Virus record (IMG/VR): IMGVR_UViG_3300029318_000058
Span: 1-31,441 of that record
From: a virus
Lineage: Duplodnaviria > Caudoviricetes
DNA: 31,441 nucleotides
Strand: one strand, 5' to 3'
The notes below the pieces were generated by a model. It searched no databases and had not been told where the DNA came from. It was given only the letters and a program-made list of their open reading frames with translations. Positions 24,110-30,045 of the stretch are shown one piece after another. A program made the position numbers and the translations under genes. How positions within the stretch are numbered: the first letter of the stretch is position 1; each line of letters opens with the position of its first letter.

Positions 24110-24231
24110 GGGTGCTAATACTAGAGGATATATACACGAAAATAATTCCTTTCACTATAGTTTGTACTAGCACCCATATTCCCCAACAACCTAGCTAGGT
24201 GAAGGTTTTACCTTACATAACGAGGGGGAAA
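24110..24231 (-). other. Two structured RNA domains (12-bp hairpin and a branched domain)
   Basis: GGGUGCUAGUAC/GUAUUAGCACCC stem (G-U pair only on the - strand). UUCCCC/GGGGAA encloses AAGGU-AAA-ACCUU and ACCUAGCUAGGU. Confidence 0.5.
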
Positions 24232-24235
24232 CTTT

Positions 24236-24345
24236 ACTGTGTAGGCGTGTAGCCACCTGCATTATAGACCATGAGCACAGAGCCTTACCTCAGGAACTTT
24301 CGTCTATTGCATTAAGCTCACTACCTTATGTCTTTCCTACACAGT
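24236..24345 (-). ncRNA. Putative structured ncRNA, element A
   Basis: Perfect 10-bp closing stem ACUGUGUAGG/CCUACACAGU. Inner GUAGU/GCUAC, UGCA-AUAGAC/GUCUAU-AA-UGCA and an alternative GAC-GAAA-GUU hairpin. Core shared with element B. Confidence 0.65.
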
Positions 24346-24357
24346 TCCATATGGAAA

Positions 24358-26866: not shown

Positions 26867-27017
26867 AATAACTCCTGTTGTAACATTTAATACATAACAG
26901 ATTATTTCCTGTCGTATCTATGTTTATCATCATTGGTAAAGTGTACTTCCTCCCACATAGAAAGCATTGTTGGATGGGAGTACTTTTGGAGGAGGAAGGA
27001 TTAGATTGTACTCCCAT
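26841..27017 (-). CDS. 58-aa zinc-ribbon protein (not in ORF track)
   Basis: MGVQSNPSSSKSTPIQQCFLCGRKYTLPMMINIDTTGNNLLCIKCYNRSYYENKNKNS; CxxC-x20-CxxC. Confidence 0.65.
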   Translation of the reverse strand: MGVQSNPSSSKSTPIQQCFLCGRKYTLPMMINIDTTGNNLLCIKCYNRSYYENKNKNS

Positions 27018-27024
27018 CTAAACT

Positions 27025-27828
27025 CTAGGCAGCTTGGCTAAACCAAGCCATGTTAGACACTTTCCTCTCTCTATCATAGCGAGTATTTACTGAATCGCTA
27101 GGATAATGTGTACTCCAATGCGTGATTGCTTGATATGCACTGAATTTATTAGGTCCAAACTTCTGTGCATAGTTATCATTGTACTCAATAAGAATAAAAT
27201 TCTTGTGGTTTTGATTGACATGACTCTTGTCAGTACGTGTTGGTTGATAGCATAACTTATCTACTTCAGCTTCGAACTGATAGTCATCTACTGGTATTTC
27301 TAACCAGTTAGTCATGTAGTTATGTACAGTATGTAGTCCATCAATAGCTGCATAACCACCAGGTAATGCTAGTTTAATCTCACCACTACCTTTGTGTGCA
27401 GTATTTAAACTGATATCCCATACTGAACTCTTGAGTCCATTAAGACATAGCCATAGATAGAAACCTAAATCAAATCTAAATGAACGCATACCATTGTAGC
27501 TGTTCCATATCACAGCTTCTAGACCAATAGATGTATCTTTGAATGGTATCTGATACTCTGGTAAAGAGAATCTAGTAGCCATCACAGCACCATTGTTAGA
27601 GTGCTTGTGTTGTTCAGTCATACCGTTGGTATCAAAGTGTTCATTGAGAAAGTCAATAGCTTTATCATACGCTGTGTCATGTGAAATGACTCGGTATGTG
27701 TTTTTGTGAACTGCAATCAGTTCGTTGTTATCTTCTTTAACCAACTGCTTGTAGCCATCTAGCCTTGAGCCATGTTGATTGTATACAGGTTCTTCACGAA
27801 CCTGAAATAGTAGTTCTTGTGGTAACAT
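27025..27828 (-). CDS. DUF932/DUF945 family protein
   Basis: YRVISH, WNSYNG, LCLNGL, H(KG) and YQAITHWSTH motifs; AGGAGG RBS. Confidence 0.85.
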   Translation of the reverse strand: MLPQELLFQVREEPVYNQHGSRLDGYKQLVKEDNNELIAVHKNTYRVISHDTAYDKAIDFLNEHFDTNGMTEQHKHSNNGAVMATRFSLPEYQIPFKDTSIGLEAVIWNSYNGMRSFRFDLGFYLWLCLNGLKSSVWDISLNTAHKGSGEIKLALPGGYAAIDGLHTVHNYMTNWLEIPVDDYQFEAEVDKLCYQPTRTDKSHVNQNHKNFILIEYNDNYAQKFGPNKFSAYQAITHWSTHYPSDSVNTRYDRERKVSNMAWFSQAA

Positions 27829-27846
27829 ATTTCCTCCTTTGTTACA

Positions 27847-28120
27847 TTCGCCAAGGGCGAGGGATTAGTGTTATTACCCTCATGCTTTCAGCTACAGATA
27901 TACATTCATCATTTGCCTACTTACAACCACCTTCGAATACCTCAGGCATTTGCCCATACTTCATCTCCAGTGTACCTTACGCCTCTGTATAGACGTTATT
28001 CAGTCAGCCGATACTGATAGCTATTCAGTACCACGAAACTTCGAGAGCCGACACCATGCTATTCATAGGTGCTTTAGCGGTGATCATGGTCCACTAGCAC
28101 TAGCTCTCTCGCTCAGCGAA
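27847..28120 (-). ncRNA. Putative large structured ncRNA, element B (about 275 nt)
   Basis: Fills the whole intergenic gap and is closed by UUCGCUGAG/CUUGGCGAA. At least six internal helices, several with minus-strand G-U pairs, and a 6-bp pseudoknot ACCAUG/CAUGGU. Confidence 0.75.
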
Positions 28121-28122
28121 AC

Positions 28123-28533
28123 TTATAACTCTGCTCTAAATGAACAGAACTTATCTGATTTAACACGATCTAGTATTTTTTTACCTAGTTCATATCGTGC
28201 ATACCACATTAGATAGTAGTGGTATTTACTTTTTTGATGATCTTCTATTGACTGACCTGTTTCTGGTACAGGTACATTCAATAGCTTACACATTTCTTCT
28301 CTAGTATAGCCATCATTCTTTTTGAAGAAATCATCTAGTAAACCTTTTCTCCAATCTAAACGCTGACAACATTCATCTAAACCTGCTTGTATTTTTGGTA
28401 TATGTTCATCATCAAAATAATATTCAAGATAATCTGGTTGAAATCCTATTGATCCAAAGAAATCTGCATCATTACTAGATTGTATACCAAACCAGAACTT
28501 ACCTTCTATATCACCCTCGTAATATCTACCCAT
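28123..28533 (-). CDS. Conserved hypothetical phage protein
   Basis: MGRYYEGDIEGKFWFGIQSS..ADFFG N-terminus; GGAGG RBS. Confidence 0.75.
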   Translation of the reverse strand: MGRYYEGDIEGKFWFGIQSSNDADFFGSIGFQPDYLEYYFDDEHIPKIQAGLDECCQRLDWRKGLLDDFFKKNDGYTREEMCKLLNVPVPETGQSIEDHQKSKYHYYLMWYARYELGKKILDRVKSDKFCSFRAEL

Positions 28534-29992: not shown

Positions 29993-30036
29993 AAAAAAAA
30001 TAGTTGGACAATGGGGTAGAAACCCCACTATCCCAA
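29993..30036 (-). terminator. Rho-independent terminator in the early operon
   Basis: Minus strand: GGAUAGUGGGG-UUUCUA-CCCCAUUGUCC stem followed by a U-tract. Confidence 0.8.
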
Positions 30037-30045
30037 ATAAAACTT

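Follow-up and report, generated by a model that had tools for sequence, protein, structure and literature searches.

A marine podovirus carries two separate structured RNAs, a divergent manA relative and a small knotted RNA, between early genes

Introduction

The window analyzed here is a whole virus record (G000) of 31,441 bases that is 94% complete and belongs to a marine podovirus. The nearest relative of its major capsid protein is that of Pelagibacter phage Hodr (60.6% identity), with HTVC010P more distant (30%), and Hodr likewise provides the top match for the YqaJ protein of the window. From the capsid identity and the YqaJ match we infer a SAR11-type host. The minus-strand early region of the record contains a gap that is bordered upstream by a 136-aa phrog_33624 gene (28123–28533), the function of which is not assigned, and downstream by a 267-aa gene (27025–27828) that an initial annotation had designated DUF932. 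The latter designation is confirmed by a match to PF06067 (E 1.5e-8), and BLAST of the protein produced no match among 50,697 phage records. The DUF932 gene is followed by genes for a YqaJ exonuclease, a phrog_7838 protein and SSB.

The initial annotation described the gap as a single pseudoknotted RNA of ~275 nt (27847–28120, minus strand) attached to the ribosome binding site of DUF932, and proposed that its complexity might denote a catalytic or RNP-forming (assembly-forming) RNA. The question raised by the locus is whether this stretch is one RNA that belongs to the gene behind it, or an assortment of modules with a separate existence.

Results and Discussion

The flagged stretch consists of two modules

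The distances originally reported are correct: the upstream gene terminates with TAA at 28125–28123, the proposed outer stem starts at 28120, and 6 nt lie between position 27847 and the ribosome binding site AAAGGAGG (27840–27833, minus strand), which is outside every covarying helix. All of the proposed pairings can be written on the minus strand at their positions, and GAGAGCU/GGCUCUC, GUGG/CCGC, GGUACU/AGUAUC, ACGUCU/AGGCGU, GGGC/GCCU and GAGGG/CCCUC are confirmed by homologues. The outer stem UUCGCUGAG/CUUGGCGAA did not withstand this comparison. It bridges two modules, termed A and B here, that are found apart, and each of its arms possesses a local partner: the 5′ arm is a hairpin of A in which CGC/GCG is replaced by CCC/GGG in homologues, and the 3′ arm pairs with UUCGU of B, a pairing that appears as UUCAC/GUGAA in 4 of 21 sequences. 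The long-range stem can be drawn because A and B both start with UUUCG. Its 5′ arm is present in three of the 13 relatives with B at this site and is missing in the other ten, and the 9-bp stem may form in this one precursor. Since relatives have A, other units or nothing in front of B, no RNA family corresponds to the 275-nt unit; both modules are found singly, in either order and at further positions, instead of as a unit tied to the DUF932 ribosome binding site. Overall, the flagged stretch is two separate folded RNAs, a manA relative (B) and an uncatalogued knotted RNA (A), each with its own closing stem.

The prediction of a conserved, multi-helix RNA on the minus strand that is not a terminator was borne out, as homologue alignments revealed covariation in both modules and no terminator-like site was found in the gap. 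The stretch also is non-coding: stop codons interrupt all six frames in 28 of 33 B copies, and an 88-codon open reading frame on the plus strand is reduced to 42–63 codons in all five relatives that were checked. The folding energy of the 286-nt gap was not above chance (z −0.03 for the minus strand; z −1.86 for the plus strand).

Module A is a small knotted RNA

Module A spans 76 nt (28043–28118, minus strand) and had no Rfam family match at E values up to 10; BLAST of the gap and of A against the 50,697 phage records produced only chance matches. The module opens with the mini-hairpin CGC/GCG (28118–28110), after which the 7-bp stem GAGAGCU/GGCUCUC (28108–28102 with 28049–28043) closes the remainder. 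Enclosed by this stem are the hairpin GUGG/CCGC (28094–28091 with 28080–28077), which bears the invariant loop UGAUC (28086–28082), and two helices, GUGCUA/UAGCAU (28100–28095 with 28061–28056) and GCACC/GGUGU (28072–28068 with 28055–28051), that cross to form a pseudoknot. Thus, the pseudoknot predicted by the initial annotation is real and is located on the minus strand, but its partners differ from those that were proposed. The original combination of GUGCU/AGCAC with ACCAUG/CAUGGU was paired in 88.4% of cases, was equaled by shuffles in 76 of 500 trials, and had a G-C pair broken in five of nine sequences for each helix. The minimum-energy fold of A alone (z −1.26) is identical to this discarded fold and was rejected by the homologues.

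Loci with A were collected in scans that yielded overlapping sets of 12 plus 3 viral and 17 metagenome loci and that comprise two subtypes. The subtypes were counted apart since a joint plain alignment displaces the first pseudoknot helix by one column, making it look unpaired. Pairing was 99.6% in the subtype of the window (nine sequences), with two-sided changes at 3 of 25 pairs, and 97.1% in the other subtype (eight sequences), with two-sided changes at 8 of 26 pairs. A model constructed from the latter eight sequences recovered the copy in the window in a held-out search (52.9 bits, E 8e-12). The A sequence of locus L384 differs from that of the window at two positions only, which convert GUGCUA/UAGCAU to GUGCUC/GAGCAU.

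Module A also possesses invariant unpaired letters. Its size, pseudoknot and invariant joining letters are those of a ribozyme, and self-cleavage by A and other small modules would account for the processing of the module trains described below without host enzymes. However, many trains hold B alone, and no ribozyme family in Rfam, hammerhead, HDV-like, twister, pistol and hatchet included, was matched at E values up to 10, nor at values up to 0.5–1 in searches of 45 further loci. The earlier proposal of a catalytic RNA was not sustained by these searches, and self-cleavage is the least probable of the readings weighed here. The strand order of A, P1-a-b-b′-c-a′-c′-P1′, is one that we take to be unlike the topologies of HDV-like, twister, pistol and hammerhead ribozymes.

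Module B is a divergent manA RNA

Module B spans 191 nt (27847–28037, minus strand). The Rfam comparison that the initial annotation recommended detected nothing at gathering level in the window, but did produce a match below the cut-off over the 3′ two-thirds of the stretch: manA (RF01745) aligned with 27851–28030 at 33.5 bits (E 1e-6, model positions 1–192). The gathering cut-off of 55.2 bits was not attained by any B copy that was scanned (28–42.2 bits). The ends of the module are closed by UUCGU/GCGAA. Inside this stem are the P1 hairpin (28032–28010); the helix GGC/GCC (28009–28007 with 27858–27856); the segment UGACUGAAUAA; the helix ACGUCU/AGGCGU (27996–27979) and then UAAGGU; a CAC/GUG arm that holds UGGGC-AAAU-GCCUG (27956–27943); a GGC/GCU arm (27917–27890); and the helix GAGGG/CCCUC (27881–27859).

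Two pattern scans of viral contigs provided at least 60 distinct full copies of B, at least 42 of which are under 93% identity. Among the 21 closest sequences, 97.2% of cells were paired, two-sided changes were evident at 12 of 38 pairs, and none of 500 shuffles matched this result, a test that is inflated by kinship and in which the structure was drawn from the same 21 sequences. Sliding of the partners in a control decreased pairing to 37–48%. RNAalifold with 33 B sequences assigned 27 pairs, 14 of them with two-sided changes; it also placed a GUAC/GUAU helix that competes with CAC/GUG, and the assignment of the inner arm is tentative. The motif AUGAUGA, which had been suggested to denote a kink-turn or C box, is retained in only seven of the 33 copies. 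A conserved RUGAUGA with a CUGA partner, as in box C/D RNAs, was not found in B, and matches to snoRNA families were at chance level (E 2–7).

The core of manA is present in B in the correct order: the 5′ hairpin, UGACUGAAUAA, P3-UAAGGU, the 3′ GGGU/AUCCC hairpin and the closing stem. This assignment is based on the full-length alignment, the covariation in the core helices and reciprocal matches to loci that pass the Rfam cut-off. Specifically, a model built from B detected the cut-off-passing loci L178 (52.6 bits), L224 (48.8 bits) and L177 (45.6 bits). The same model matched canonical cyanophage copies weakly (L068, 30 bits) or, in the case of L053 (182.6 Rfam bits), missed them at E 0.1.

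The portions available of a cryo-EM preprint report that manA RNAs fold and oligomerize alone in vitro into pentamer-based, RNA-only 8-, 10- and 60-mers, which kissing-loop contacts hold together; the L5-L7′ contact is found in each of the two structural groups (10.64898/2026.07.01.735769). A GUGGU-loop hairpin, scored as GTGGT within 25 nt after TAAGGT, was absent from all 33 B copies versus present in all ten cut-off-passing loci, and an ACCA-loop hairpin, judged by eye, also is missing from B. We infer that the GUGGU and ACCA loops are the L5-L7′ kissing pair of manA cages and that this pair is lost in B. Moreover, no covarying loop-loop helix was detected in the 33 B sequences (effective number 11.5), in which the L8-L9 arm aligns poorly. 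With the hairpin missing and no such helix, cage formation by B cannot be assumed. The earlier suggestion of an assembly-forming RNA nevertheless may still hold, since members of the manA family form RNA-only cages in vitro. Overall, B descends from and works like manA, yet counts as a variant, and not as a filed member of the family, because it falls below the cut-off and lacks the defining hairpin pair.

Eight loci with 62–84 Rfam bits (L175, L177, L178, L199, L220, L222, L224 and L261) share the AAAU-loop hairpin with B, and are a sister group that links canonical manA with the trimmed form. Further divergent RNAs with a UGACYGAAYAA...UAAGGU core were observed at L058, L070, L072, L079, L083, L085, L064, L077, L145, L148, L154 and L158. 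These L058-type RNAs suggest that the manA clan extends well beyond what the Rfam model captures.

The B pattern had one match in GTDB genomes versus more than 100 in viral contigs, and in view of this single match B is considered a viral RNA. The GTDB match (L383, 1485–1683) resides on a contig of a WOR-3 metagenome-assembled genome, scored 31.5 Rfam bits and 33.5 bits with the B-built model, and may represent viral sequence that was binned with this genome. Neither A nor B was found in pelagiphage Hodr or in the fetched stretches of records G027 and G037.

Presence and absence at the DUF932 site

A total of 48 loci with DUF932 relatives, near-duplicate records included, were fetched, 34 of which also hold the upstream gene. 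The site between the two flanking genes in these 34 loci is empty in 18, with a gap of 12–14 nt, and contains B in 13, A alone in one and a small open reading frame in two. B was present in 20 of the 48 DUF932-bearing records, with one copy per record in all 20, and in three of five near-complete relatives, the other two having none. Small open reading frames with their own ribosome binding sites occupy the same position before DUF932 in L009, L025 and L033; thus, the site accepts protein and RNA cassettes alike. On a DUF932 tree made with 26 of the 48 loci, from which partial and some duplicate rows were left out, the distribution of B needs four changes; the well-supported branches force only one, and several origins are not demonstrated.

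The precise presence and absence of the modules, their occurrence at several sites with swapped order, and the lack of B in two of the five near-complete relatives are patterns expected of selfish or neutral RNA cassettes that spread by linker recombination or through an RNA stage with no benefit to the phage. Such elements would proliferate, whereas B never exceeds one copy per record in the set above. Furthermore, both the structure and the unpaired letters are under strong selection, and no transposase or reverse transcriptase was identified among 13 window proteins that were scanned. A selfish origin is very unlikely on this balance.

A common linker heads the modules of reordered trains

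The sequence AAGUUU precedes both modules on the minus strand. Linker 1 (28119–28124) is overlapped by the stop codon of the upstream gene and matches the RNase E core RN|WUU in the form AG|UUU, which makes it a putative cleavage site. Linker 2 (28036–28041) lies between the modules, and its last two U residues also are able to pair in the closing stem of B. In the wider collection of 12 module types, AG(U/A)U(U/C) is located at the head of 110 of 120 distinct 5′ contexts, compared with 3.0% of background positions; the module starts and anchors were set after the linker had been seen and linkers travel with modules, so that the contexts cannot be counted as independent, and two of the anchors (K and N) may include false matches. 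The variation between AGUUU and AGAUU is the same freedom that the RN|WUU consensus allows. As RAGTTT is not scarce across the genome (88 sites versus 64 expected), only its placement at module starts counts. A single short signal marks the start of every module type.

The surroundings of B were assessed in 42 distinct contexts from the close subfamily. AAGUUU is located just before B in 34 of these. The module is directly before DUF932, at most 19 nt away, in eight contexts, and ends within 19 nt of any start codon in 14; 17 run into another AGUU-headed unit, and in many B is located behind SSB or behind the 3′ end of a homologue of DUF932, with some neighbors remaining unassigned. Modules are combined in 28 multi-module order strings, some of which are truncations of others, including A-B and B-A, D-B and B-H-D. 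Trains also occur at the end of operons before oppositely oriented genes (L421, L418 and L422), and A alone precedes the DUF932 ribosome binding site in L019, L391 and L393.

These contexts bear on two readings in which the modules would act in cis. In the first, a module placed at a new 5′ end by cutting at the linker would shield the DUF932 or recombination message from 5′-end-dependent decay. The closing stem of B stops 6 nt short of the ribosome binding site, one-third of the B contexts are within 19 nt of a start codon, and A alone also is found before the DUF932 ribosome binding site, all of which are compatible with shielding. However, 17 of 42 contexts lead to another module, trains at operon ends have no gene to protect, and 18 of 34 relatives lack any RNA; in addition, one hairpin would suffice for this purpose, which leaves a dozen unrelated folds with invariant loops unneeded. 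mRNA stabilization consequently is regarded as unlikely. In the second, the stretch would be a riboswitch or tandem riboswitch for DUF932, with the long-range stem as one of two conformations. The position before a ribosome binding site, the aptamer-like invariant unpaired letters of A, the ability of the 9-bp stem to form here, and the listing of manA as a riboswitch candidate (PMC2864571, in the portion available) speak for regulation of this type. Against this, the ribosome binding site is covered by no helix and no terminator follows, downstream neighbors are unrelated or absent, and most relatives with B at this site are missing the 5′ arm of the long-range stem. A switch is distinctly improbable, more so than the stabilizer.

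The window itself contains a second train on the minus strand, which consists of module D (24237–24354), directly after the SSB stop codon with an AGUUU head, and module E (24181–24228) with an AAGUUU head; neither showed an Rfam match in a near-identical record. D and E (24181–24354) both contain UAAGGU, as does manA, and D in the window has a 40-nt insert, with the 12-letter palindrome TTCCATATGGAA in the head. Long trains, which reach five or more units (uncatalogued ones as well as F, G, H, J, K, N and P) and cover 300–600 nt with no open reading frame, are found in L370, L378, L402, L408, L412, L418 and L422. Module C, of ~85 nt and with two crossing long-range helices discerned by eye, has no Rfam match and is present in L007 (2695–2785), L189, L201, L212, L276 and L399. 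The other modules also were without Rfam matches in 45 loci scanned at E values up to 0.5–1. None of these modules is a tRNA: ARAGORN and Rfam detected no tRNA or tmRNA in the window, and the one tRNA detected among 43 loci is adjacent to a manA that passes the cut-off.

An 11-bp hairpin after DUF932 (26973–27018, minus strand) has a CCUCC-rich, anti-Shine-Dalgarno-like loop, CCUUCCUCCUCC, that is complementary to AGGAGG ribosome binding sites of the phage. CCTCC is retained in all 27 relatives while the stem changes, and the head is AGUUU in nine and AGAUU in 11 (20 of 27). This hairpin probably is a further module, and presumably resembles the small RNAs of alphaproteobacteria with CCUCC loops. 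At 30006–30045 on the same strand, AAGUUU right after the stop codon of a 178-aa early gene is followed by a 12-bp terminator-like hairpin.

Expression and a proposed mechanism

Part of the stretch occurs in 17 RNA runs. In contigs of the four marine metatranscriptomes that were examined, B was covered in all four and A in two; in run X7 only 27846–28124 was covered, with contigs that continue into module D sequence. These contigs were selected by matches to this sequence, possibly include DNA, and carry no information on strand, level or RNA ends. They signify presence in RNA libraries and do not prove that the RNA is separate or abundant. No sigma-70-like site was apparent near 28125, and a promoter scan gave no excess over shuffles (28 versus 30.5). 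In the absence of a promoter-like site at the head and of a terminator, the modules most simply are read as part of the early transcript.

The two folds are found with or without each other, in either order and at several sites. It is reasonably probable, in our estimation, that the modules are released as separate non-coding RNAs from the early transcript and act in trans. Module A followed by manA-like B would be a two-car train of self-contained non-coding RNAs in an early operon, transcribed by read-through from the early promoter, after which an endonuclease of the host would cleave each AG|UUU linker. Since stems close both ends, the modules would persist as compact, stable RNAs that may work in trans, binding proteins of the host as scaffolds or decoys, a guess prompted by the closed ends, the invariant loops, the optional presence and the self-assembly of manA; B possibly is an oligomer like other manA RNAs. 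The short linker, in proximity to genes for the YqaJ exonuclease, annealing-type proteins and SSB, could supply microhomology for the gain, loss and reordering of modules, which thus would be accessory cargo and not controllers of DUF932. The 14 of 42 B contexts that end near start codons count against release of a trans-acting RNA.

RNase E is the first candidate for the cutting enzyme, a choice that we make tentatively because the linker fits the RN|WUU core and the motif is located at the 5′ ends of the modules. The consulted portions of Chao et al. (2017; PMC5222698) describe RN|WUU as the RNase E consensus, with GA|UUU in ArcZ and a preference for single strands, and an AU preference of the enzyme also is reported in Rhodobacter (PMC6238624, in part). 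The linker is mostly open before A, and in B, D and E its U residues can pair with AA at the 3′ end of the module. As RNase E prefers single strands, the linker instead may mark the junction of helices or be cut by a different enzyme.

Relation to known systems

The accessible text of Weinberg et al. (2010; PMC2864571) places manA as a riboswitch candidate in 5′ UTRs. In common with manA, B has the 5′ hairpin, UGACUGAAUAA, P3 with UAAGGU, the AAAU-loop inner arm, the 3′ GGGU...AUCCC hairpin and the closing stem, and derives from marine phage. In contrast, B is ~20 nt shorter than the nearest cut-off-passing group, has an extra outer closing stem, and resides in a small podovirus whereas canonical manA is found in T4-like cyanophage. 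The identified neighbors of B are phrog_33624, DUF932, SSB and other modules, and not genes for mannose, fructose, sugar or nucleotide functions, ibpA or photosynthesis. The T4-like cyanophage S-CREM1 has clustered non-coding RNA genes, wcaG, manA and abiF (PMC9964418, in the portion available), that resemble the present arrangement in that structured RNAs of unrelated families are packed into a few hundred bases. However, no wcaG, abiF or other Rfam match is found here, and the modules abut behind a common signal in changing order. Small RNAs that RNase E releases from ncRNA precursors and the 3′ ends of mRNAs (PMC5222698, in part) likewise start right after a stop codon at a site of the RN|WUU type, here AG|UUU, but are Hfq-bound, base-pairing and terminator-ended, whereas the present modules are closed multi-helix folds in series for which cutting is predicted. 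Within the portions available, PMC7779021 and 10.1101/2020.02.04.933952 concern the model only, and PMC12379486 does not cover manA. No account of these trains was found in the literature searched, which covered few subscription journals, and A or other modules may be among the 10,000 candidate viral RNAs from IMG/VR in PMC10690425. New here are the precise empty sites, the order inversions, the single head signal that 12 module types have in common, the trimmed form of manA and the fold of A.

A broader proposal, which we offer as speculative and rather doubtful, is that these abundant marine podoviruses possess an RNA cassette system of a dozen or more uncatalogued families, analogous to an array of gene cassettes, in which the shared head would be both cut site and recombination joint and the RNAs would be exchanged among strains as decoys in counter-defence or host takeover. 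The manA devoid of its main kissing pair might then be a monomeric core that exposes the true function of manA, or a subunit that assembles otherwise, and A might self-pair through its self-complementary GAUC loop.

Conclusions

Since 2010, manA has remained an orphan among riboswitch candidates. Its cages were reported recently, and the part of that report available assigns them no role in vivo. Here, manA moves from site to site, is located in trains and at the ends of operons, and is lacking from half of the close relatives, a distribution that argues for the RNA itself being the product. In the trimmed form, nature has provided a deletion test that sets the cage-making parts apart from the indispensable core. 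The trains, in phages whose hosts probably are of the SAR11 type, supply ~12 short covarying RNA families that Rfam does not list, and the module RNAs are small enough to be transcribed, folded and assayed jointly.
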